The notes under the pieces are model-generated. The model had not been told where the DNA came from, did not search any database, and was given only the letters and a program-made list of their open reading frames with translations. A program made the position numbers and the translations under genes. From an uncultured Actinomycetes bacterium (GTDB lineage: Bacteria > Actinomycetota > Thermoleophilia > UBA2241): a stretch of 64,000 nt of DNA. The stretch is from contig CAVRZA010000001.1 in the NCBI GenBank assembly GCA_963725665.1, forward strand, positions 32,001-96,000. The letters run 5' to 3'. Position 1 is the stretch's first letter. Each line of letters begins with the position of its first letter. Below, piece after piece: positions 4,759 through 47,685 of the stretch.

Positions 4759-6189
4759 ATGCCATCACCCCGGGTCTCTCTGCTGCATCCCTCCGATCGC
4801 GATCTCATCCATGAGCGGACGCTGGAGGTGCTCGACCAAGTCGGGGTGCGCTTTCAGAGCGCGAACGCGCGAGAGGTTCTCAAGGATGCTGGATGCAGGG
4901 TCGATCACGAGGGCGGGATCGTGCGCATTCCCGCACAGTTGGTGGAGTGGGCCCTTGACCAACTGCCGAGAGATGTCCTTCTGGCCGGCCGCGACCCCGG
5001 TCGCGACGCGCTCCTCGACGGGTCGAGGACATTCGCGACCGTCGCCGGGATCTGCCCCTATATCGTCGACGTGGACACCGGGCTCTACAGGGCTCCGCGA
5101 CTGCGCGACGTAGAAGACGTGACGCGCATCGCCGATGCCCTCGACGCTTTCGGCATCGTCTGGTACTCCGTCAGCCCGACCGCAGACACCGCGGCGAAGA
5201 TGACCGATCTGGCAGCCACGGCGCGCATGCTCGCAGCCACCAGCAAACACGTGATGGGCCAGGTCACTCGCCCGGCTGAAGTCCCTTATGCCCTCGAGCT
5301 CGTTCGCCTGTGTGCTGCGGACGACGACCGCCCTTTGTTCTCGATCATCTACTGTCCGGTCGCGCCCCTGCAGCACGGCGGTCCGGCGATCGAAGCGGCC
5401 ATGGCTCTGGCCGCCCAACGCGTGCCCATCGACATCTTCAGCCTCGGTCTCGCCGGGGCGACGGCGCCGGTCACCCTTGCCGGCACGATCACGCAGACCA
5501 ACTGCGAGGTGCTGAGTGCCGCCGTGCTCCTCCAGCTCGTCGCCCCCGGCTGCCCCCTCATCTACTCTGCCAACGCCGGCATCATGGACATGCGGACCTC
5601 CCGTTTCGCCGTCTCGACCCCCGAGACGATCCTCATGAACGTCGCTCAGATCGAGCTGGCCCATTCCTACGGCATGCCGGCGCTCAGCGTGGGCTTCGTG
5701 CCCGACACCAGCGAGCTGGGGTTCCGCGGCGGCGTCGAGGACATGGCGTTCGCGCTGCCGACCCGCCTCGCTTGCCCGGACATCATGACCGGCCTGGGGA
5801 CCCTCGAGGCCGGTCAGGCGGTGTCGCTGCCCAAGATGCTGCTCGACGCCGAGATCGTGGCGTACCTGGATCGTGTGATGGAGGGTATCGCGGTGGACGG
5901 AGAGCACATCTCCGTCGAGGCAATCAGGTTGGCCGGCGCCGGCGGGCAGTACCTTTCGCAGAAAGAGACGCGCACGCGCATACGGGCAGGCGAGCACTGG
6001 CTCCCGGACCTGTTCCACAGACGCTCCTATTCGGAGCGACAGGGCGGCGCCCCTGACGAGATACACGGCGCGGCCAAGCGCGCGGCAGAGATCCTAGCCA
6101 CGCACAGGCCCCTTCCACTCCCGCCGGGAGCAGCCGAGCGCGTCGCCGACGTTCTCCTGGCGGCCGAACGCGAGTTGCCCGGCGCATGA
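4759..6189 (+). CDS. Trimethylamine methyltransferase (MttB) family protein, non-pyrrolysine
   Basis: GATAPVTLAGTITQTNCEVL and MDMRT motifs; no in-frame amber codon. Confidence 0.88.
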   Translation: MPSPRVSLLHPSDRDLIHERTLEVLDQVGVRFQSANAREVLKDAGCRVDHEGGIVRIPAQLVEWALDQLPRDVLLAGRDPGRDALLDGSRTFATVAGICPYIVDVDTGLYRAPRLRDVEDVTRIADALDAFGIVWYSVSPTADTAAKMTDLAATARMLAATSKHVMGQVTRPAEVPYALELVRLCAADDDRPLFSIIYCPVAPLQHGGPAIEAAMALAAQRVPIDIFSLGLAGATAPVTLAGTITQTNCEVLSAAVLLQLVAPGCPLIYSANAGIMDMRTSRFAVSTPETILMNVAQIELAHSYGMPALSVGFVPDTSELGFRGGVEDMAFALPTRLACPDIMTGLGTLEAGQAVSLPKMLLDAEIVAYLDRVMEGIAVDGEHISVEAIRLAGAGGQYLSQKETRTRIRAGEHWLPDLFHRRSYSERQGGAPDEIHGAAKRAAEILATHRPLPLPPGAAERVADVLLAAERELPGA

Positions 6190-6203
6190 GCACCAGAAGG
6201 GGC

Positions 6204-6250
6204 CGGTAGCGCATACCGGATTCGAACGGGTGTGGCGGCTGTGAGTGGGC
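6204..6250 (-). repeat. Degenerate 3' duplicate of tRNA-Glu (att-like scar)
   Basis: ggtagcgcataccggattcgaac matches the tRNA-Glu 3' end at 45560 onward; anticodon arm eroded. Confidence 0.85.
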
Positions 6251-6469
6251 ACTGATCAGTCTGCGACGAAGTGTCAGCGAGTGCCTCAGAGAGCCTTCCT
6301 GAGCGTGGAGAACGGGGTCGAGTGCTGCCCGGAGTGACTAAGCGCCACCTGCTGCCGCTGCCGACGTTCCCCCCTACGGTTTGCGCAAGGCGCTCGTCCA
6401 GCACAAAGAGGAGACGAGAACCGAACATCGGCCGGCGAGTCCGGGTTCGCCCCGCCTCAAGGAGACGAC

Positions 6470-6985
6470 ATGAGCACCGCAAGCATCAGCGATGCGCTGC
6501 AGAGGATCAGCAACGTATTCGCCGCCGATCCAGAAAAGGCGCACACGAAGGGCACTCCCGCGACGGCACGCCTAGTGGACGGGCTCCGATTCGAGGTGAC
6601 CGGCCCGACGGGTGAGATCGCTCACACCGACATGCCGGCGGCGCTGGGCGGCGCTGCGAGCGCGCCGGCTCCGGGCTGGCTGCTCCGTGGAGCGATCGCC
6701 TCTTGCACCGCCACCGTCATTGCCATGCGCGCGGCACGGATCGGGGTTCACCTGAAGACGCTTGAGACCACCGTCGAGAGCGAGTCAGATCAACGCGGCC
6801 TGCTCGGTCTGGATGAGAGCGTCTCCGCCGCATTCACCACGATGCGTATACGAGTCAGGATCGGGGCAGACAACGTCGCACCCGATGACTTGCGTGCACT
6901 GGTCACATGGGGCGACGTTCATTCACCCGTCGCATGCACCGTGCGCAAATCTCCGGTGACTTCCGTTGAGGTCGAGATCGTCTGA
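6470..6985 (+). CDS. OsmC family protein
   Basis: TDMPAALGGAASAPAPGWLLRGAIASC and HSPV motifs; aaggag RBS. Confidence 0.85.
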   Translation: MSTASISDALQRISNVFAADPEKAHTKGTPATARLVDGLRFEVTGPTGEIAHTDMPAALGGAASAPAPGWLLRGAIASCTATVIAMRAARIGVHLKTLETTVESESDQRGLLGLDESVSAAFTTMRIRVRIGADNVAPDDLRALVTWGDVHSPVACTVRKSPVTSVEVEIV

Positions 6986-7600: not shown

Positions 7601-9061
7601 TCACCTCGAGGCCTTGACCCACGACCTAGGGTTCTTCGAGATCCGTCGCTTCTGGAGTGACATGGGCATGAGATCGAGGTGCATTCCGGTCGTCCCTCCA
7701 GGGTCGCGGCTGAAGAGGACGCGGGCGGTGCCTATGCCGAACTCGGACAGGTCGATGCGGAACGCATAGGGGTCCATGTCGTCGTCCGGGAGTAGGGGAA
7801 AGCCTCTGTAGAGCGCGGGTAATGGGCTCAGACCTCGAAGCATCAGCTGACCACGCCGAACGAAGACCTCGGCTCCCGCGCCGATCGTTAGCCTCGCACG
7901 TGCATCCGTGAGCCGGGCGGAGAGCCGGTACCAACCGCAGATATCGCCCCATATCTCAGGGCGTTGCGGAACATCGGTCCGGATGACCTCGTCCGGGACG
8001 CCGAGCAGGCGCTTGAGCAGCCCGGCGACCTCACCCGGCAGCCAAAACATCGCACGCCTGGCCCCATTGGTGAAGGCCATCACACCGACTCCGTCGTCGG
8101 GAGCCGCGAAGATCTGAGAGTTGAAGCCAGGGAGAATCCCCCCGTGCTCGACCGCGAGATGGCCGCCAATGATGAACCGGGAGAACGCCAGCCCGATACC
8201 CGGCACTCGGGGATCGGGCCGGTAGTGCGGCTCGAATATGCTGGCAAGCGTCGCCGGTTTGAGCACTGAGCCGTGCTCGTTGGCGCCACCGCCGAGGAGA
8301 GCCGCGACGTAGCGTGCCATGTCCCTCGGAGTCGAGTAGATGGAGGAGGCTCCCGCGGTCACCCACTCGCGGTCGGTGACCGCTTTCGCACCATTGGAGC
8401 GCAGGTTGTAGCCCGTCGCGAGGCGGGACTTGACCAGCTCGGATCGGAGGAGGTCGGTGTCGGCCATGCCGAGGGGCTCGAAGATGTGCTCGCGTAGGTA
8501 GCAGTCGAAGGGCTTCCCGCTCACGTCCTCGACGATCTGGCCGAGAGTGGCGAAGCCGTGGTCGGTGTATATGAACCGGGTGCCCGGTTCGGCCGCCAGG
8601 CGGAGACCGCCGCGGTAGTACTCCGCAAGCGTCGGCAGTGGCTGTCCGAGCTTGAAGCTCTCCCCAAAGTCCGACCTGAACGCGTCGGAGGCGTGCAGCT
8701 CCTCTGGGATTCCGGCCGTGTGGGTCAGCAGATGGCGCACTGTCGCCGGCCGGAAGCTGGCCTTCGCCGGGATCAGCCGATACGCCCGCAGGTAGTCGTT
8801 GGCGGGCGCATCGAGGTCGACCGACCCTTGCTCCCAGAGCTGCATCACGGCGATCGCCGTGAATGTCTTGGTGATGGAGGCGATGCGAAAGACCGTATCC
8901 TCAGTCACGGGTGTGTTCGACGCGATATCTGCGACCCCGTGTCCGAAGAAGAACTCGAGGGATCCGTAGCGGACCACTCCCACCGCCAGTCCGACTGCCG
9001 GCCAGCGGTTGAGGATCTCGCGGACTCTGGCCTTCATCTCGAGCTCATCGACATCAGACAT
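7601..9061 (-). CDS. Serine hydrolase, beta-lactamase family
   Basis: FRIASITK (SxxK), LLTHTAG and HGG motifs. Confidence 0.9.
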   Translation of the reverse strand: MSDVDELEMKARVREILNRWPAVGLAVGVVRYGSLEFFFGHGVADIASNTPVTEDTVFRIASITKTFTAIAVMQLWEQGSVDLDAPANDYLRAYRLIPAKASFRPATVRHLLTHTAGIPEELHASDAFRSDFGESFKLGQPLPTLAEYYRGGLRLAAEPGTRFIYTDHGFATLGQIVEDVSGKPFDCYLREHIFEPLGMADTDLLRSELVKSRLATGYNLRSNGAKAVTDREWVTAGASSIYSTPRDMARYVAALLGGGANEHGSVLKPATLASIFEPHYRPDPRVPGIGLAFSRFIIGGHLAVEHGGILPGFNSQIFAAPDDGVGVMAFTNGARRAMFWLPGEVAGLLKRLLGVPDEVIRTDVPQRPEIWGDICGWYRLSARLTDARARLTIGAGAEVFVRRGQLMLRGLSPLPALYRGFPLLPDDDMDPYAFRIDLSEFGIGTARVLFSRDPGGTTGMHLDLMPMSLQKRRISKNPRSWVKASR

Positions 9062-9163
9062 GGCTCTCCCTTCCTTTCACCCGCCCGCTGAGGGTAGTGA
9101 GCCTGGCTGGCCCTGAGTTCTCTCGTAGACTAATCCATACAGTCTGCAGAACCGTTGTCAGGC

Positions 9164-9670
9164 GTGACTCAAGGAGCTGCGTTGGCTAGGGATGCACGTC
9201 TTGTGGCCGTCCACCGCGGCGGCCTGCTCGACGCGCGCCGGCACCGCCTGCTCGCGCGCTGGGCCGCCGACTGCGCCGAGCACGTCCTTCCGTTGTTCGC
9301 AGACACGTATCCGGGCGACGACCGACCACGCCTCGCGATCGAGACCACACGTGCGTGGTCCCGCGGTGAGGTGACCGTCGGTGAGGCGCGTGCGGCATCC
9401 GTTGAAGCGCACGCAGCTGCAAGAAGCGCCTCTGACGGCGCCGCGACGGCCGCTGCCCGCGCGGCCGGCCACGCGGTCGCGACCGCGCACATGGCTGACC
9501 ACTCGCTGGGCGCTGCCGCCTACGCTGTCAGGGCCCTGAGTCTGGCGCCCCAGACGACCGATGCGAAGATGGCGGTTGACCGCGAACGCCGATGGCAGCG
9601 CGAGCATCTGCCAGAAGCGATCCGTGAACTCGTGGTCTCGGCCCAGGAGCAGCGGTCGATCTTCACCTGA
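9164..9670 (+). CDS. Putative immunity protein (Imm5-like)
   Basis: [10 protein letters not shown]...DDRPR...[13 protein letters not shown] pattern. Confidence 0.75.
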
Positions 9671-9680
9671 GTCACGGTCC

Positions 9681-9742
9681 TGGTAGCGCGTACCGGATCC
9701 GAGGATTCGGACCTCGGTTCCACGATCCAGAGCCGCGTGTCC
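9681..9742 (-). pseudogene. Chimeric tRNA remnant: tRNA-Gln(CTG) anticodon and T arms fused to the tRNA-Glu 3' end
   Basis: 9681-9702 is about 20/22 identical to the tRNA-Glu 3' end; 9699-9740 gives T arm CGAGG/CCTCG and anticodon arm CGCGG-CTCTGGA-TCGTG. Confidence 0.75.
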
Positions 9743-15809: not shown

Positions 15810-15950
15810 ACGCAGGGGGCGGCTTCTACTCCCGGAGAGTTGTCCGCAGGCTGGCACTGGCCCCCCCCGCCGACCTCAAAGGTGAGGACATGTCGGCGCG
15901 ACGATCGCGTCGGTGGCCGCGAAAACCCTGCATATACGTCTGACGAGGGC

Positions 15951-15998
15951 TGGTAGTGCATACCGGATTCGAACCGGTGTTACCGCCGTCAGAGGGCG
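15951..15998 (-). repeat. 3' duplicate of tRNA-Glu (att scar)
   Basis: 46/48 identical to 45559-45606; left flank also resembles 45531-45558. Confidence 0.92.
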
Positions 15999-28383: not shown

Positions 28384-28775
28384 GACTCCCCCTCTCCGGT
28401 GTGTGCGGGATTCACGCGGAAGCTAGTAGGGGGCCGACCGAGGCGCTTATGGCGACCGCAGACGGGTCTCGCGGCCGGCCCGGGGAAAGCGTACGTCGGC
28501 GCGCTGGCGGGCGCCAGGGTGACAACAGGCCATTGATTGCCTCGAGGTAGGGGGGTGTCTATCCTCTTCCCAGCATAAGGCCCGCCGGGTGTTGGCGTGG
28601 CGTAGAGGAAAGAGGAAGCTCAGTCTCACCCGGACGTCACCCCGGGCCAAGCCTGAGCTATGCCTCGCCTGGCTCGCCACGCTCCGTACTCCGGCGGGCC
28701 ACTGAATACTATCGCCTTCCAGCACCCGTTGCCCAGTGAGACAACAACCGCTTGCGCAGGGCAGGTGTTTCGAGC

Positions 28776-28823
28776 TGGTAGCGCATACCGGATTCGAACC
28801 GGTGTTACCGCCGTGAGAGGGCG
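28776..28823 (-). repeat. Perfect 48-bp 3' duplicate of tRNA-Glu (att)
   Basis: Identical to 45559-45606, spanning CCA end through the anticodon arm. Confidence 0.95.
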
Positions 28824-39795: not shown

Positions 39796-40018
39796 CCTGG
39801 TGCCTGTACCGGCTCCTTCGAAGGGCTGCTCGAGTCTGCGGGTATGCGGGCACGGGCGGGTACGTGGGGAAGCCCGATCGACGAATCGTCACGTCGATTC
39901 GAGTCCGCGTGCCGAAAGCGCTTAGCGTCGGACCGGCTCTCAGAGACACCCGCACCTCCCCGCATACCCGCAGCTCCTGACCGCCTGAAGTGTCTTCACG
40001 GGCAGGCCTCGATGCGGG

Positions 40019-40117
40019 GAGGTCTTCCGCGGCCCACGAAAGGTTCTCCTTCGCACTCTCGGATACCGAGGCGTATTCGGGGCCGTCTGCGGGCTCAGAG
40101 GATGCGGGAAGGCAACC
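40019..40117 (+). repeat. Repeat family R1, copy 5
   Basis: gaggtcttccg-cggccca-cgaaaggttct...gtattcggggccg...ctcagag. Confidence 0.78.
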
Positions 40118-40279
40118 GAGACGCCAGGCGTGACGGGAGGGGGTGCTCTCACGGAGCGTGCGGCGGCCGGTGGTCTTCGGCTCCGGTCGCCCGTTCTTCG
40201 CCACCGGCGGCCTGGCCGAGCCGCTGCGGCCAGAGAACCCGACCAGGATCGTGCCAGGCGACCGGGTCACCCACTTGGT

Positions 40280-40876
40280 CTACGAGGTGTGCACGGGATA
40301 GCGCAGATGCGTGACACCCACACCGGTGACGACTGTCGGATTCCCGAGGACGACCGGTGTGTTCGCGAGGTGGTCGAACAGCCGCACTCCTGCGCCTAGC
40401 AACACGGCAGCCAGATCGATGTGGATCTCGTCGAGCAGCCCGGCGTCCAGGCACTGCTGGATCGTTTGGGCGCCGTGCACTCCCACGGACTTCGGGCCAG
40501 CAGCCGATTTCGCTCGAGCAACGGCGCTTTCGATGCCGTCGGTGACGAATTGGACAGTCGAGTTGGGTCGCGGCCATCCGGCGGGGATGTGGTGGGTAAG
40601 TACGAATGCTGGTCCCCAAGCGTGATTTCCACCCCAGCCTTGGGCGACGTCGAAAGTGCGTCGACCGGTGAGCACGGCACCAAGTCCGGACGTGAGACCG
40701 CGAAGGTGCTCGGCGCTCGGCCCGGACACCTTGAACGTCATGGGGTCCGACCCTCCGGTGTGGATTTCGACGTCCCCCGAGGTGAAGTACCAGTCGAACA
40801 CTTCGGCCACGCCATCGTTGAGGTCGGCGATGTAGCCGTCGAGCGACATGGACATGATTGCGACAACCTTCGACAT
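40280..40876 (-). CDS. Dihydrofolate reductase/RibD C-terminal family protein (cassette-like)
   Basis: SMSLDGYI, TGRRTF, LLGAGVRLF; follows the R' box of an attC. Confidence 0.9.
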   Translation of the reverse strand: MSKVVAIMSMSLDGYIADLNDGVAEVFDWYFTSGDVEIHTGGSDPMTFKVSGPSAEHLRGLTSGLGAVLTGRRTFDVAQGWGGNHAWGPAFVLTHHIPAGWPRPNSTVQFVTDGIESAVARAKSAAGPKSVGVHGAQTIQQCLDAGLLDEIHIDLAAVLLGAGVRLFDHLANTPVVLGNPTVVTGVGVTHLRYPVHTS

Positions 40877-40943
40877 TGCGATGTTCCTTTCGAGGGGTGG
40901 AGACTGCGTTCAGGGGATCGCGCGCTGTCCTCCCGGATCGTCC

Positions 40944-41030
40944 GCCCAACGTGTCGCGCATAACCTGCGCGGGCCGCGGCTGGACTCTCCTACAGACCTT
41001 GGCCGCGTCAGGTTGACGCGCTTGTTGGGC
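40944..41030 (-). mobile_element. Integron attC site (87 bp)
   Basis: Minus strand GCCCAAC-AAGCG-CGTCAACCTGAC...GCAGGTTATGCG-CGACAC-GTTGGGC; unpaired G and T six bases apart on the bottom strand. Confidence 0.88.
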
Positions 41031-41057
41031 GTCACCGCGAACCTGTGCGATGCCCCG

Positions 41058-41501
41058 TCACGACTTGCCCCAGCCGGGCAACTGACTGGCTTGCTTCACC
41101 CATGCGGCGAACTGCTCCTCGTCGAACTGGTCGTCCTCGTAGATGTTGAGGTAGCGCACGTTCTCGTCTTTGGACTCGCCCGGCGGGACAGGGTCCAGCG
41201 ACGTACCGTTGAAGAAGGCCACTTTCACGTACTTCGCGAAGCAATGGAAGTTGAGGAACCAGCCCTGCCCCTCCATGCCGTAGAAGGGCGAATTCCAGCG
41301 CACCGCCTTCTTCACGTCCGGGACGGTGCGCACGATGATCGAGTCCAGGCGACGTCCGACGTCGCTCTTCCAGCCCGGCATGGCGGCGATGTAGGCCTGT
41401 ACGGGAGCGTCGCCGTCGGCCTTCGCGATCTGAGGATTGCCGCCGGAGAGGAGGACCGGCTCCGCTGCCTCTCCGGACTTCTTGGTCACCTTGTCCGCCA
41501 T
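41058..41501 (-). CDS. DUF1801 (YdhG-like) protein in a gene cassette
   Basis: LLSGGNPQIAKADG...KAVRWNSPFYG; bracketed by two attC sites. Confidence 0.88.
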   Translation of the reverse strand: MADKVTKKSGEAAEPVLLSGGNPQIAKADGDAPVQAYIAAMPGWKSDVGRRLDSIIVRTVPDVKKAVRWNSPFYGMEGQGWFLNFHCFAKYVKVAFFNGTSLDPVPPGESKDENVRYLNIYEDDQFDEEQFAAWVKQASQLPGWGKS

Positions 41502-41567
41502 TGCTCACACTCCCGACCCGTAGGCTCACCGACAACGTGATGATTCCCCTGGCGGATGCGTCAGTAC

Positions 41568-41672
41568 GCCCGACGGTGTGGCGCATCAGCTGCAATGCGC
41601 CGCTGCTCGCCGTCTTCAAGCCCGAGACTAGCGTGTCCGCGGCGTATTGTCTGCTCGATGCGCTTGTTGGGC
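41568..41672 (-). mobile_element. Integron attC site (105 bp, R' variant GTCGGGC)
   Basis: Minus strand GCCCAAC-AAGCG-CATCGAGCAGAC-AATACGCCG...CGGCGCATT-GCAGCTGATGCG-CCACACC-GTCGGGC. Confidence 0.83.
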
Positions 41673-42130
41673 GGGCGCCGTAGCAGGCCAGACCGTAGGA
41701 CCCGGGAAGCTACGAATCGGGCGAGCATGACCGTGCGCGGGCCCAGCCCCCCTCGAGCTGGAGACGGTGCAGGTCGGCACTCGAGGGCGGGTAGCTGAGA
41801 GGCGAGCTGGTTCAGGGCCCGTGTGTCGGAGGCTGTGATTGGGGGGAGCCGGTCATCTTCAACGCGACGATGATCAGCCACGTCGCCAGCATCCCCGCTG
41901 TCAGCAACTCCTGAATCGCGACTTCAGGCCAGGGCCACACCGACCACTGATTGACGACCCCAGACCAAGGCCACGTCGTAACCCAGATAATGCGTTAAGG
42001 AGCCCGAAGACCAGCGCCATGGAGCCGACACGGCGAGAGCCGAGCGCCCACGACAAGAATCCGTATGCAAGCATCGTGATGGGGATCATGAGGAATAGCA
42101 CGCCAGAAACCACGCGGTGGACTGCTTCTG

Positions 42131-43288
42131 CTATGACCGCGTCCTGAATCGGAAGTCACGCTTCGGTTCTGGAGTGGGGCGGAGGAGATGCTTCTCCGCA
42201 AGCAGGCGATCCATCGCCGGATCGGGTCGCCAGGGGAAGTCGAGGAATGCCCAGTCTATCTCGATCTCTTCTTCACCCACTCGAGATACCGCCAGTCCCA
42301 CCTGACGCTGCAGTCCCCAGTCGTACTTGGCCGCCAGCGTGTAGTTGCGGAGGGCACTCACCCGAGTTTCATACTTGTCCCGGGGCACTGGAACCACGCA
42401 GAAGCCGGTTTTGCGCCGCGGCACGAGCATGCGCGCCGGCAGCTGGAGGTACTCCCCTCCAGCGCTTTTCGAGGGCCCAGTCGAGCAATCCACGAAAACC
42501 GCGCATGTGCACCCGGTTCATGTACGCAAACTCGTCGAGTATCCGGTATAGGAAGTCGCCTGTTGTCGCCGTCGATGTAGAAGACCTTCTCGCCGTACTT
42601 GTTCAGCATGTCCCAAGGTCGAACGACTCGACGTCGTGCAGGGCGTCATCCAGAAGGACCCTGACGGCGTCGTCATCGAGAGTTCCCGAGGGATCTTCGG
42701 CGATGAAGGCGGCCAAGAGGCGCGCTTCATGGTGCTGCCAGGGCGTACCCTGAAGAAGGACCTGCTCGCGGAAGGCGAAGTAGTCTGCGATCTCGGAAGG
42801 CAGAGCCAGGATACGGCAGACCTCAAAGAAGTCTCGGATGTGCAGGAGGTGCACAAAACCGGCCTTGCTGCTCTGTCTGTGACTGGTGCGAGCAAGCAGG
42901 CGGGGCGGGGTTCTGCCGCATGAGTAGAGCGCAACCGGAACGATCGGCGCCTCGGGGCCGGCAAGGTCTCGAATGTGGCCGCGCTGGTTCGGATCCTCAG
43001 ATCTGGCTCGCGCTCGAAGAAGCTCTTGGTGTCGGCGAGTTGCCTGCACGCTTCCTTGAGGACCTCGTGCTTGAACCACCGCTCAATGGCGGCATCGGAG
43101 CCGTCAGCGCGTATGTCGCGCTCCTTCGCCTGAAAGGCCAAGATCGCTTCCGGCAAGAGAGCGATATGGTCCGCGAGCTCGTACTCTTGGCCGGAGGTGG
43201 ACCGGAACTGGTTGCCTGCAAAGGTGAACTCCCGGAGGAAGATGTTCCCGCCGATCTCCGCAAGCAAAGCCTCAAGGTCTGTGCCCAA
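42131..43288 (-). pseudogene. Frameshifted hypothetical protein with PD-(D/E)xK/NERD-like N-terminus
   Basis: Pieces in several frames; ELADH...FQAKER resembles a nuclease motif; TTG start with ggag RBS. Confidence 0.55.
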
Positions 43289-43306
43289 AGCTCTCCGACT
43301 CTTTCC

Positions 43307-43366
43307 ACCTAACGTCAGGCGCGTGAGGTCATGGCCCACTGACCTTCTGGCCGAAGGTCATGGGCC
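43307..43366 (-). mobile_element. attC remnant (terminal hairpin, L' and R' only)
   Basis: Minus strand hairpin GGCCCA..TGGGCC, then ATGACCTCACGCG-CCTGAC-GTTAGGT, then RBS and start. Confidence 0.6.
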
Positions 43367-43838
43367 GACAGCGCCAGTCGTCACTTGAGGTCCGACGCTC
43401 GAGCAGTCGACTGCCGTCGTTCGTGACTATGTACACGGCGTCGATGATCGTGTCAGCATGGCCGGAATCGTCGGACAAGCTGGAGCCTTCCTCTTTGAAC
43501 GTCAGGTAGCCGAACTCAACGAGGTGATTGACGAGAAAGGGCATGGCCACGACCCGACCATGGCGGTAGGCCTCCTTGAGGGCGTTTAGGCCCGGTCTTG
43601 TCAAAGTCTTGACGACGAGCCGACGCTTCATGTCGCGGAGAAGGTCATTGCTCGCTCCCTTGCCGTTGTGATGGGAGACATGGCAGTTGTGGCACAGCAA
43701 GATCTTGTTGTCGTAGGCCTCGCTCGTCGGCTTGGTTTGCTGGAGATGATGCACTGTCAGCACGCGGCTATCACGCAGGCCGCAGAGCGCGCAACTGCCA
43801 TCGGTCTCGAGGTACAGGAGTTCATCCGTAGTCGCCAT
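43329..43838 (-). CDS. HNH endonuclease domain protein (true stop may be near 43381)
   Basis: CALC...VHH...N...LCHNCH zinc-HNH motif. Confidence 0.82.
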   Translation of the reverse strand: MATTDELLYLETDGSCALCGLRDSRVLTVHHLQQTKPTSEAYDNKILLCHNCHVSHHNGKGASNDLLRDMKRRLVVKTLTRPGLNALKEAYRHGRVVAMPFLVNHLVEFGYLTFKEEGSSLSDDSGHADTIIDAVYIVTNDGSRLLERRTSSDDWRCRPMTFGQKVSGP

Positions 43839-43877
43839 GGAGCCTCCGATCCGGAGCCAACGTCGACGGTATCAGGG

Positions 43878-45257
43878 CTACGCTAGGCGCTGTTCGCCCG
43901 GATGTCGTTGTTGGCCTGTCACCCAGGGCACAAGCACCTCGTCTTCGCCCTTCCACCCCTTCCAAGCGCGCCGTGCGTAGTGGCCGGTGTGACCACATGC
44001 GGCGAGAATAGCCAAGTCCAGGTACTGCAAGGCTAGCTGCGAGCACTCGTACCACGTCATCCCGTTGAGCGAGCCAATGACGGTTCGGTTATCTTCTGTG
44101 GCGTGGACGATCGCGTTGCGCACGCGTGCAATGACTCCCGGCCCGTCGAAGGCGTCGCCTTGGCACAAGCCCGATAGACTGGTCATGTAGTCGGGCACCA
44201 TCGCCGGGACGCCGATGTGCTGCAGAAGCACGCGTATCCGGCCTGCTGCTGACAAACGCCTGAAGTCGGTCCGGGTGTGCAGTCGGCTCAGTCTCGACAA
44301 GCAGCACCCAGGCCAGCATGTCGAGTGCGACCTGCGAGAGGACCACCGTGGCCTCTAGGCCGAGCGCTGGTGAATTGGCTTCGACAAGCCAGTGGACGGA
44401 GGAGTTGAGTGGACCCCTCCACGCTGGGTCGTTCCACTTCTTCACGAAACCGGCGAAGAGATTGGAAAGCTCCAGCCGTTTCTGCTCGGGCATCCATGTC
44501 GTGACCGGGCGGCTTTCGTCAATGTCCCACGAGCCGTACTCGCGCCAGGCGACTTCGTCATCGGTGAGGCGGCAAGCGGGAATAGGGGGCCCGCCCACGC
44601 GCCGCGCAGAAACCCGAACCACAGGAAAAGCATGTTGAGGGTCTCATGAGCCTCAGCGATAGTCATTTCGCTCATCGCGGGACGCCATTCACCGACGTGG
44701 GTGATGACGAATCCCGAGTCGCGCTTTGCGGCATTACTAAGCTCACGCGCCTCAGGGATCACGTCCAAGATGCATTCGCCTGAGTCCGCTGCAACTCGCA
44801 TTCGACCGGACATGCTTCCACGCGACCCATGCATCTCATAGGACACGCCTTCACCAATGTAGCTCGGGAAATTGGCGAGACAGAACCGCAACGTCTGAAT
44901 CGGAGGCTTGCCGAAACTGATCGGCTCCGCGACAACGCCTTGGACATTGGGCTCGGTCCCAAGAGCCATACTCGTTACGAGCACCGGTGCCTCAAAGTGA
45001 GGTTCCTCGCACTTGAGGGACCAGCCAGATTGGGAGTCCAGTCTCGCCGCCTGCGAGTAGGCGCCGCCAAAGACAAGCGCCGCGGATGGCAGCCAGCGAA
45101 AGATGAGGTCCGAATCGACAAAGCCCGCGGTGTCACCGATCAGCTCAAATGGCCCAGGCAGAGCTCTAATTGGTTCGTTGAGCGCACGCATTTCGACGTG
45201 CGGCTTCAGTCGTTCAGGCGGGCTATCCGGTGGGTCGGTCACCGTCCACTCCTCCAC
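43878..45257 (-). pseudogene. HEPN-domain protein (ApeA/YopA-like), two frameshifts
   Basis: Three consecutive minus-strand ORF pieces; C-terminal RNAIVH (Rx4H); lower GC. Confidence 0.65.
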
Positions 45258-45558
45258 TCAACCAAGCTAACATCGATTCTGCAGTCTCCATATGGCGATG
45301 ACGCCACCGTCCGCCGTCTTTGGCACGACCGCTGCAACTCTACTGGAGTCAGGAGCCTGGCACGGGCGAAACTCTCGCTCTCCCGAGCGACTTGTCCAAG
45401 TGCGCACTCCAACACCCGTGAGTGCACGCGAGTGCCACCTTGTACTATCACGTCACGCTGAGTTCGGTTGCAGGAGGGTTGCAGACGGGTTGTGGAGGGG
45501 TCCTCGGCGAGGGTCTCGACGACGACGCAAAATCCCTGCATCTACGCCTGAAGAGGGC

Positions 45559-45634
45559 TGGTAGCGCATACCGGATTCGAACCGGTGTTACCGCCGTGAG
45601 AGGGCGGCGTCCTAGGCCCCTAGACGAATGCGCC
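45559..45634 (-). tRNA. tRNA-Glu(CTC)
   Basis: Cloverleaf, anticodon arm CCGCC-CTCTCAC-GGCGG, GGTTCGAATCC, CCA. Confidence 0.96.
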
Positions 45635-45650
45635 ACGCGAGGCTGTCTAC

Positions 45651-45724
45651 TGGCTGCGGGACAAGGATTCGAACGTCGATACCGTGGTCCAGAACCACGT
45701 GTCCTACCATTAGACGATCCCGCA
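45651..45724 (-). tRNA. tRNA-Gln(CTG) with a T-stem mismatch
   Basis: Acceptor TGCGGGA/TCCCGCA, anticodon arm CGTGG-TTCTGGA-CCACG; T-stem CGACG/CCTTG. Confidence 0.9.
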
Positions 45725-45818
45725 GCGGAACGGCGCAACAGGATAGCACGGTGTCCCTCGGTCAGTGAAGTCGCGCGAGCCTCGGCACCGGCGGCGGCAC
45801 TTCGGGTACGCTTTCCCT

Positions 45819-46199
45819 GTGTCCCACGCAGACGAGCACATCACCGACCCCCGCGTCTTCCGCCTGAGCGTCTCGAGCGGTCCGGGCTACGTGCTCTTCG
45901 GTTGGGACTATCCGGGCTCGACGCTGCTCGAGGTGAGGGTCGTCCGATCGACTGAGGCGTTCGCCTCAGACTCGGACGACCCCGCCCGCCCGGTCGGTCA
46001 GCGCATCGTCTTCCAGGGTGTCGCGGGCTCGTTCCGCGACACCGACGTCGTCGACGGGGAGCGCTACTTCTACACTGTCTTCGCCCGCCGTCCGGAGGAC
46101 CTCGAGTGGACGCGGTGGGGCCGGCACAAAGTAGTCGCCGGCCGGCCCCATAGGCCGGGGCTCGTCGCACGGTGGCTGGCGCGCCTGCGCCGCGGGTAG
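45819..46199 (+). CDS. Small FN3-like beta protein, paralogue 1
   Basis: W...VVRS...F.G....DTDV...YFYTVF pattern; TACGCT 6 nt before GTG. Confidence 0.7.
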   Translation: MSHADEHITDPRVFRLSVSSGPGYVLFGWDYPGSTLLEVRVVRSTEAFASDSDDPARPVGQRIVFQGVAGSFRDTDVVDGERYFYTVFARRPEDLEWTRWGRHKVVAGRPHRPGLVARWLARLRRG

Positions 46200-46289
46200 T
46201 GCTCGGCGTCGCTGAGGCTGGGTGCTGACGAGTCGCCGGCGCCGGAGCGGCTGAGGCTCGCTCCGGTCCTTCCTTCCTGCGGTTCTGGC

Positions 46290-46560
46290 CTACCCGACGT
46301 GCAGCAGCCTGCCGACGAGGCCGCTGCGCCACACGAGGCGCACCAGCAGGGCCCACGCCACGGCAGCCCCACACACGACGGCCCATTCCCATGTCGTCAT
46401 CGTCGAGAGTTCGAAGAGGTGTCGCCCGAGGGGCAGCGCGCAGATGCCGGCGAAGAGGGCCAAGAGTCCGACGGCGGTCAGGGTGGGCCGCCAGTCCCCG
46501 CGCAGAGGCGCGCCGCCGGTGAACCACGCGGTCGCAGCGGCCCTCCTCTGGTCGCCGCTC
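46290..46560 (-). pseudogene. Hydrophobic C-terminal gene fragment, possibly from a P-type ATPase
   Basis: LPLGRHLFEL plus TM segments, no convincing start. Confidence 0.4.
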
Positions 46561-46693
46561 AGTCTACAGGCCGCTTCCACGTGTTGCCGGAGCAGCGGGG
46601 TGAACGAGTGAACGCACCGCACCGGGCGTGGCCCCTGTCCCTGCTGTAGGCTACGCGCAGGTCACTCAGCGCAAGGACGCAAAGGAGCGGGCG

Positions 46694-47098
46694 ATGGGTC
46701 TCTTCCATCACGAGGGTCACATGATGAAGCACTTCCACGCCAAGCACGGGGACGGCTGGGTGGTGCTCAAGTGGCAGGCGCACGACGCGCTCGAGGAGTG
46801 GAAGGTGCTGCGCTCGCGTGGCGAGTTCGCGCAGACGGTCGAGGAGGCCGACGACCCGGTCGAGACCGGACAGCGCCTCGTGTACGAGGGCAAGGACACC
46901 GACATCCAGGACACCGACGTCGAGGACGAGGTGCAGTACTACTACACGGTCTTCGGGCGCGAGCCGGAGGGCGAGTGGATCGGTCAGGCCGAGGTCAAGG
47001 TGACGCCGAACGGCGAGGCGACGTGGTCGCACTCGGAGGCCGAGCATGCCGAAGGCAAACGGCTCGGCCTCTCGGCCATCGGGCCACACCTGACGTAG
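46694..47098 (+). CDS. Small FN3-like beta protein, paralogue 2
   Basis: VVLKW...VLRS...VYEG...DTDV...YYYTVF; aaggag RBS. Confidence 0.78.
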   Translation: MGLFHHEGHMMKHFHAKHGDGWVVLKWQAHDALEEWKVLRSRGEFAQTVEEADDPVETGQRLVYEGKDTDIQDTDVEDEVQYYYTVFGREPEGEWIGQAEVKVTPNGEATWSHSEAEHAEGKRLGLSAIGPHLT

Positions 47099-47280
47099 CA
47101 AGGCAAGCTGCAGCTCCGGCCGATCGCGCTTTGAGCCAGTGAGGAACCACGCCGCAGCGAGGGGTTCCCGACGAGTCCTATCGGGTACGATGCCTTCCGG
47201 ATGAGATGCGGCATGCGTCGCTCGAGCTTCGTCTCGGCGCACATGCCGCATCTCCTTCCGCGACAGCGAGAGGAGGCTCG

Positions 47281-47685
47281 ATGAGTCTGTTGCGATCCGG
47301 GAGAAACGGGCATCGTCTGCGTCGTTTTCGAGCCAGGCGCGGCTGCGGCTGGGTGGTGCTGAAGTGGCGAGCCCACGAGTCGCTCGCCGACTGGCGCGTC
47401 CTACGGTCCCAGGTCGGTTTCGCCGGAACGGCGCACGAGGCGGCGAAGCCCGGTCTGCTCAGCTACTCGTCTACGAAGGCTCCGACGAGCGAGGTGCAGG
47501 ATCGGGACGTCATCGGAGGACATGCCACTACTACTACACCGTCTTCGGGCGAGAGCCGGGCGGCGAGTGGCTCGGCCAAGCGGATGTGAAGGTCACGCCC
47601 AAGTGCGAGATCTCGTACACAGCGCGAGAACCCGGCCGAGGGCGAACGACTGAGTCTCTCAGGGATCGGGCCGCACCTGACGTAG
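47281..47685 (+). pseudogene. Small FN3-like beta protein, paralogue 3, frameshifted
   Basis: GWVVLKW...YYYTVFGREP...IGPHLT* spread over several frames. Confidence 0.7.

Follow-up and report, generated by a model that had tools for sequence, protein, structure and literature searches.

A probable integron remnant without an integrase gene beside a tRNA-Glu gene in an uncultured Actinomycetota genome

How does an array of integron-type gene cassettes come to lie, without an integrase gene, in the genome of an actinobacterium, a group in which integrons have been considered rare? The question is raised by positions 40280-45300 of a 64-kb stretch of DNA (the window), which corresponds to positions 32001-96000 of contig C1 in the genome analysed here (G000; 3.73 Mb, 68% GC, 12 contigs, 97.5% complete, 5% contamination). 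An earlier note on the window had described this region as a cluster of attC sites lacking an integron integrase (CALIN), captured inside a tRNA-Glu island and possibly served by an integrase encoded elsewhere. In a working integron, the integrase IntI folds the bottom strand of an attC site into a hairpin and reads the R box together with the flipped-out bases G16 and T23. Cutting the AAC triplet between A and C then allows cassettes to be excised, or to be inserted at attI. Our analysis makes it likely that 40280-45300 is the remnant of a chromosomal integron whose integrase gene pointed the same way as the cassettes and has been lost. Read along the minus strand, this remnant would consist of an attI-type core beside the tRNA-Glu gene followed by about five cassettes, carrying in order from the core a broken ~450-aa gene, an HNH gene, a broken gene of the ~446-aa type, a DUF1801 gene and a RibD_C gene. 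The attC sites between the cassettes would comprise two that are intact or nearly so and two relics.

The strongest evidence comes from the two distal attC sites. In the parts of PMC5027507 available to us, the canonical attC bottom strand is described as carrying AAC in R′ and, on the opposite arm, an extrahelical G16 and T23 or T24 with a 6-bp stem between them; the R-box consensus RYYYAAC/GTTRRRY is taken from the same source. Site 1 (40944-41030, 87 nt) has its top strand on the minus strand, and its predicted recombining bottom strand is the plus strand, which starts with GCCCAAC (40944-40950, R′) and ends with GTTGGGC (41024-41030), with predicted cleavage between 40949 and 40950. Counted from the 3′ end of the plus strand, G16 is 41015 and T23 is 41008, and the 6-nt stem between them is completely paired (CAGGTT/AACCTG, 6/6), as the earlier note had claimed for the unpaired G and T of this site. 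Site 2 (41568-41672, 105 nt), in the same orientation, is partly degenerate. Its plus strand starts with GCCCGAC (41568-41574, R′), not the GCCCAAC of site 1, and ends with GTTGGGC (41666-41672); G16 and T23 are 41657 and 41650, 4/6 stem pairs are kept, and the bottom-strand triplet AAC is mutated to GAC. Both hairpins thus lie where they had been described and show the R-box inverted repeat (RYYYAAC...GTTRRRY), site 2 with its mutated triplet, and two relatives' sites (2/57) are likewise G-U paired at the mutated position. The ends of sites 1 and 2 are conserved and their centres differ. Since the G16/T23 geometry is read on the plus strand, this strand is predicted to be the recombining bottom strand, with the genes on the top strand as in normally oriented cassettes.

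Folding of the sites as single-stranded DNA was compared with that of dinucleotide shuffles (200 for the two main sites). The plus strand of site 1 folds at -30.2 kcal/mol (z -3.07), which 2/200 shuffles equalled, and that of site 2 at -36.4 kcal/mol (z -3.98), which none of 200 equalled. Three covariance models were then applied, the E-values of which are rough. R1 was built from five attC copies of the window's own genome, R2 solely from 57 sites in four relatives, all downstream of and co-oriented with IntI, and R3 from 32 sites that R2 found at 16 IntI loci outside Actinomycetota. R2 gave site 1 a score of 87.6 bits on the plus strand (E 6.6e-21) and only 18.6 bits on the minus strand, and gave site 2 52.7 bits (E 1e-11); with R3, made from sites of other phyla, the scores were 66.7 and 42.4 bits. 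Models from IntI-adjacent sites serve here as surrogates for a curated attC covariance model such as that of IntegronFinder. Searches against Rfam (gathering threshold and E <= 10) matched nothing but tRNAs in the array region.

Each model was derived from the one before it, and the independent evidence is where their hits lie, and on which strand, relative to IntI. R1 identified seven good copies in the window's genome, in small clusters on C1, C11 and C2, and matched 31/36 genomes of the same family vs 1/24 genomes from other families of the class. Many of the matches in relatives form tandem arrays with a spacing of 0.5-1 kb. In four relatives the IntI gene directly adjoins the arrays and is oriented the same way as the cassettes, and 57/57 R1 hits lie downstream of it on a single strand. 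R2 identified 32 sites in 16/52 IntI loci of other phyla, again all (32/32) sharing one relative strand and lying downstream of IntI; by record title these loci belong to Bacillota, Myxococcota, Acidobacteriota, Chloroflexota, Bacteroidota, Spirochaetota, Nitrospirota, Fibrobacterota and Thermodesulfobacteriota. Among the 57 sites from relatives, G16 and A15 are invariant (57/57 each), whereas 37 sites have T and 12 have C at position 23. A hand-written structure of 22 pairs, comprising the R box, the L box, the 6-bp stem and two pairs past T23, is 90.1% paired in these sites, vs 27-35% when slid. Compensatory cells numbered 142 against 48.6 +/- 5.4 in shuffles, a value reached in 0/500 of them, and 14 pairs show changes on both sides. 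Pairing in helix 3 amounts to 97.2% in the relatives.

Ordinary intergenic palindromes, such as elements resembling repetitive extragenic palindromes or transcription terminators, would also appear as GC-rich imperfect palindromes after stop codons, which is what the two hairpins are. A terminator scan was negative at both hairpins, however, and the same element, both in relatives and in other phyla, forms one-strand arrays next to IntI. Conservation extends to the unpaired G16 and T23 and to the ends, whereas the centres vary. This explanation can be given almost no weight. The observation on the two attC sites is correct and lies far beyond chance, and, as judged from their sequence, 40944-41030 and 41568-41672 form hairpins that are genuine attC sites of integron type, with the plus strand as the predicted recombining strand.

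Between the two sites, which are 537 nt apart, lies a DUF1801 gene (41058-41501, minus strand; Pfam E 3.7e-16), as the earlier note had stated. If the bottom-strand triplet is cut between A and C, the cassette extends over 40950-41573 (624 bp). A copy with 86% nt identity over 590 nt is present in another genus of the family (locus L044), between attC hits at 8990-9087 and 9625-9733 and downstream of IntI at 6001-6957; at the protein level the identity is 92% and 81% in two tblastn pieces that are one base out of frame. The similarity extends from the conserved L′-R′ boxes of the upstream site to the R″-L″ part of the downstream site, and the centres of the downstream sites differ between the two genomes. 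The DUF1801 cassette is one that the window shares with a complete integron of another genus. The orthologous upstream junction reads GTT in L044 and GTC in the window; since L044 keeps GTT, the triplet of site 2 was lost by a point change in the window genome. The last and most distal cassette gene encodes a RibD_C-family protein (40280-40876, minus strand; PF01872, E 8.3e-9), a distant homologue of which, 26% identical, is likewise flanked by two attC hits in an array, that of the relative G027 (L036 10161-10589). Converging on this gene is the C-terminal remnant of a second RibD_C-like gene (40133-40301, plus strand) with a stop before it, and this remnant occupies the expected place of a terminal attC.

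The tRNA-proximal part of the array is more decayed. A probable decayed cassette at 41574-43312 (minus strand) contains a broken gene (open reading frames (ORFs) 42518-43339 and 42131-42493) and a small ORF at 41901-42113. It is followed towards the tRNA by a cassette gene with an HNH endonuclease domain (43329-43838, minus strand; Pfam HNH E 1.2e-4), for which the NCBIfam match covers only the HNH stretch of IscB, at 29 bits vs a cut-off of 175. The attI-proximal cassette gene (43878-45257, minus strand) is broken into three overlapping frames, 44442-45257, 44089-44622 and 43878-44300. Neither of the two larger split genes matched a family in Pfam, NCBIfam or PADLOC. Among 80 other genomes of the family, the gene of 41574-43312 has one homologue, a 446-aa open frame in G014, and the attI-proximal gene has homologues in two, the one in G008 being a 447-aa open frame that is 66% identical and has beside it an attC of the same orientation (44.3 bits), together with two weak hits. 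Since the homologues are open frames of ~447 and ~446 aa, the window copies of both large genes are disrupted.

Further co-oriented genes had been said to start right after GTT boxes at 43307, 43855 and 45265. The letters are present; strict RYYYAAC occurs 34 times on the window plus strand, or 0.53 per kb, so that such 7-mers alone are no more than chance, and AGCCAAC (43855) and AGCTAAC (45265) do not match the consensus. For the first two boxes there is additional evidence. At 43304-43402 (minus strand), the R′-L′ half of a site appears to be kept (ACCTAAC, 43307-43313) and R″ lost. Positions 43304-43327 are the third-best nhmmer hit of the window to a profile of the relatives' sites, covering model positions 2-25, that is the R′-L′ half only (E 0.12), and R2 gave no covariance-model hit; 43300-43410 folds at -26.4 kcal/mol (z -3.08), with the inner hairpin remaining, and the relic overlaps the final codons of the HNH ORF. 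It is read as a half-site relic attC of which the 43307 box would be part. The second, 43851-43920 (minus strand), is short, with GCCAAC/GTTGGC ends. It scores 18.0 bits with R2 (E 0.013), surpassed only by the two true sites and by site 1 in reverse, and ranks third with R3 (14 bits, E 0.23); its fold has a z of only -1.77. A15, G16 and T23 are in register, and it lies exactly between two co-oriented genes, and it is read as a weak relic attC that would include the 43855 box.

The third box, 45265-45271, has no attC score and lies in an unfolded region (z +0.81). It appears to be part of an attI-type core, CTGCAGAATCGATGTTAG (45267-45284, minus strand), in which 45269-45271 would be the GTT junction to the first cassette, and not part of an attC. 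The pattern CTGNNNAATNNNTGTTRG matches once in the window and in none of 100 shuffles, and three times in the genome against 0.13 expected from composition. The same core is found ~100-200 nt past the IntI stop codon in five complete integrons of the family (L023, L033, L037, L042 and L045) and in two from other phyla, those of Desulfarculus (L043) and Omnitrophota (L046). The pattern is supportive of, but not decisive for, an attI-type reading. In two relatives' loci, L034 and L035, this core is not there just after IntI, and the first gene after IntI, which resembles by eye an AbrB/SpoVT-type antitoxin, stands behind palindromic sequence.

The marginal relic scores (18 and 14 bits; E 0.12; fold z -1.77), the frequency of strict R-box 7-mers and the presence of the window copy in the alignment that defines the core pattern leave room for a narrower explanation, in which only the distal part, 40280-41672, is integron-derived and 41.7-45.3 kb is unrelated island cargo with a core and relics that are chance resemblances. 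The relics are, however, the best non-trivial hits of the 64-kb window, on the right strand and in gaps between co-oriented genes; the core pattern was absent from all 100 shuffles, and where it recurs in the genome, twice, an attC array follows it. The homologue of the attI-proximal gene in G008 also lies beside attC sites. We regard this narrower explanation as unlikely, and favour an integron origin for the whole of 40280-45300.

The absence of an integrase gene was investigated with the IntI profile TIGR02249 (curated cut-off 265 bits) and with tblastn. The best TIGR02249 match in the 97.5%-complete assembly reached 85.9 bits, and is probably due to Xer-type recombinases on C3; tblastn with a relative's IntI gave nothing in the window below E 0.24. 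The locus therefore has no intI over the cut-off beside attI and cassettes, as a complete integron would, and has what defines a CALIN, two firm attC sites with no IntI in the window or the genome. The earlier description of an array without an integrase is upheld, as is its assignment to IntI cassette architecture, for which the sites, their geometry, the co-oriented genes and the kinship with IntI-adjacent sites in relatives all speak.

Whether the array is still active is a separate matter. An IntI carried by a plasmid, or by genome sequence that was not assembled or not binned, might act in trans on the genome's small arrays; site 1 is intact, and relatives such as G012 and G003 keep one IntI with several separate arrays. 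The state of the assembly, 97.5% complete in 12 contigs, also allows for it. Against this, neither the hidden Markov model search nor tblastn detected IntI, and 0/9 nhmmer attC hits of the genome lie near a contig end. The attI-proximal genes are frameshifted, site 2 has no AAC, and the genome has ~10-12 attC-like sites vs up to 44 in a relative. An integrase acting in trans is thus quite unlikely, and the suggestion that one encoded elsewhere serves the array is not supported. Rather, the integrase would have been lost after the platform was assembled, leaving an array that is frozen, as the genome has no IntI, and decaying, as indicated by the frameshifted genes, the eroded attC sites and the AAC-to-GAC change in site 2. 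Under this proposal the window array is probably a frozen, attI-bearing CALIN.

Elsewhere in the genome the core pattern occurs twice, at C11:457777 and at C4:339802, both times at the head of a small attC array with no IntI. The array at C11:456012-457790 (L009 8013-9790) consists of the attI-type core and three attC sites (R2 56, 33 and 88 bits), with genes for a membrane protein, a TPR-like protein and a GNAT protein, and adjoins by eye a Doc/Fic-type gene. At C4:339786-342931 (L118 7786-10931), the third attI-type core, with no IntI upstream, is accompanied by three weak attC hits (23-29 bits) and by genes for a GNAT protein, a methyltransferase and an ORF that matches both IS110 transposase and dioxygenase domains. 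In addition, an attC pair without an attI core is located at C2:227243-228065 (R2 44.7 and 54.5 bits), and a single attC-like hit outside the window at C1:545238-545322 (nhmmer E 2e-4).

The C2 pair without a core would fit a scenario in which cassettes had been inserted singly, by an IntI acting in trans, at attG-type genomic sites, with no resident platform ever at the window locus; such insertion is reported in reference 71 of PMC13323075, as far as the portion of that article at hand indicates. In contrast, the window, C11 and C4 arrays each have at their head the attI-type core found after IntI in relatives, and upstream of the C11 core there are, by eye, further conserved stretches in common with the attI region of L042. 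Single insertions without a platform are accordingly rated as very improbable, and the loss of an integrase from a resident platform as the better account.

Several findings weigh against such a remnant or limit its support. The attC models, from R1 through R2 to R3, derive from sites of the window genome, so that their scores are not fully independent, and the alignment of the sites (A2) had been adjusted to the structure of the model. [quoted passage not shown] The tRNA-proximal part of the array rests on weak scores (18 bits; E 0.12), and the core pattern is short and derived from an alignment that includes the window's own copy. No attC follows the distal RibD_C gene, R2 giving no hit below 40280, and no IntI remnant was detected by tblastn (E <= 100) between the core and the tRNA (45285-45560). 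Finally, with an assembly that is 97.5% complete and 5% contaminated, an IntI gene could be unassembled.

The tRNA-Glu(CTC) gene (45559-45634, minus strand) lies 275 nt from the attI-type core and is co-oriented with the array; a tRNA-Gln gene (45651-45724, minus strand) stands beside it, upstream of the array. The 3′ half of the tRNA-Glu gene is repeated directly at 28774-28823 (50 nt, 100%), 15935-15998 (94%) and 6200-6233 (94%), with a weak copy at 9680-9698 and none elsewhere in the genome. The sequences that follow the three scars are similar to each other by eye. The repeats look like the pattern of successive integrations at a tRNA gene that has left three scars, and the segment between tRNA-Glu and the 28774-28823 repeat fits an island integrated at tRNA-Glu. 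In this innermost segment the array is at the tRNA-proximal end, and a two-component system, a solute-binding protein and an MMPL transporter are also encoded; no integrase gene was seen in the segments bounded by the repeats. The GC content of the array is 0.60-0.64 vs 0.65-0.74 in its flanks, and a promoter scan of 40000-46000 returned no sites. The two firm attC sites, the lack of IntI and the perfect 50-nt repeat agree with the earlier placement of a CALIN inside a tRNA-Glu island. Among 13 integron loci of relatives scanned for tRNA genes, only one unrelated tRNA-Ala (L045) was found; since the relatives' integrons are not beside tRNA-Glu, this context is particular to the window genome. 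Beyond the tRNA genes, at 46033-47685, direct repeats of 51-84 nt with 77-82% identity (families D1-D3) are spaced 590-870 nt apart and suggest tandem paralogous small genes.

The distribution of IntI was surveyed in 79 sampled genomes of the host's family, 401 of its class and control genomes. At E <= 1e-40, TIGR02249 matched in 44/79 genomes of the family, and in the class 53/401 genomes exceeded the 265-bit cut-off, with full-length matches scoring up to 489; none of the control genomes matched at the survey threshold. The closest 80 IntI loci include 28 titled Actinomycetota (14 Coriobacteriia, 7 Thermoleophilia, 5 Actinomycetes and 2 unclassified), and the nearest IntI proteins include some from Chlorobiota, Planctomycetota, Spirochaetota and Thermodesulfobacteriota. 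In a FastTree phylogeny with a poorly supported backbone, 10/11 IntI rows of the family form one group (support 95) with 5 Thermoleophilia-titled proteins and 1 Coriobacteriaceae-titled protein, which argues for residence in the lineage, and not for scattered recent imports, so far as the tree of these proteins can tell. The IntI of L035 (G003:C5) groups outside the family clade with Anaerosomatales- and Coriobacteriia-titled IntI (support 97), which hints at exchange of a whole platform.

The WhiB protein is a hallmark of Actinomycetota. Its domain, PF02467, was detected in 0/61 genomes of a sample of the class (the window genome and 60 relatives), a Corynebacterium control being positive. 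A host outside the phylum was considered on this ground and set aside, as records of the same family are titled Thermoleophilia or Actinomycetes. The host phylum was therefore kept as Actinomycetota, in line with the Actinomycetota-like host that the earlier note had assumed.

The published record is mixed. [quoted passage not shown] The authors of PMC13323075, in the portion at hand, suspect that unknown attC types make integrons go unnoticed. No description of integrons in Thermoleophilia or Coriobacteriia was found in the papers searched, although supplements may list Actinomycetota integrons. The rarity that the earlier note had asserted is thus consistent with these surveys (PMC9024848, PMC13323075, as far as they were available), but does not extend to the host family, with IntI in 44/79 genomes and the attC type in 31/36. 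We propose tentatively, and with somewhat less than even confidence, that an uncultured family of Actinomycetota holds resident, largely vertical chromosomal integrons in more than half of its genomes, with an attC type of its own that has the canonical G16 and T23. The window genome would represent an end state, in which three attI-headed arrays, one of them at the end of a tRNA-Glu island, have outlived the integrase.

The window locus itself is ordinary, a CALIN, and the picture at the level of the lineage is the more interesting lead. Together with its relatives it offers a counter-example to the absence of integrons from a Gram-positive phylum, in that IntI, an attC family backed by covariation, a cassette common to different genera and integrase-less arrays that keep attI all occur there. 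The family-specific attC model could be used for finding cassettes in soil and sediment metagenomes, and the window array may be followed as a natural case of array decay after integrase loss.

Three known systems provide the closest comparisons. Sedentary chromosomal integrons in which the integrase is co-oriented with the cassettes, referred to as "inverted integrase" integrons, have examples in Treponema, Chlorobi and Planctomycetes. The type is described in PMC13323075 (in the portion consulted), and the relatives' integrons resemble it in having IntI on the cassette strand, attI just past the IntI stop codon and attC sites that are homogeneous within the family. The window differs in lacking the integrase, and the IntI proteins of the family form a clade of their own (10/11 family rows with the 5 Thermoleophilia-titled proteins). 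Class 1 attC sites, as represented by attCaadA7 in the available text of PMC5027507, share with the window sites the R boxes, G16 and T23 with a 6-bp stem opposite AAC, and a variable terminal structure, and the window lengths of 87-105 nt fall inside the 57-141 bp range. Unlike class 1 sites, those of the window are GC-rich, with positions 10-15 paired and a central spacer of ~2 nt unpaired on the 3′ (R″-L″) arm and ~4-5 nt on the 5′ arm, vs 5-6 nt in each arm. CALINs are defined by IntegronFinder as clusters of attC sites lacking an integron integrase (PMC4889954 and PMC9024848, both consulted in part), and the window array conforms in having at least 2 attC sites in cassette spacing, co-oriented genes and no IntI in the genome, here with an uncultured Actinomycetota lineage as the host. 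Unlike a plain CALIN, it keeps an attI-type core at its head, and so resembles a complete platform minus intI only.

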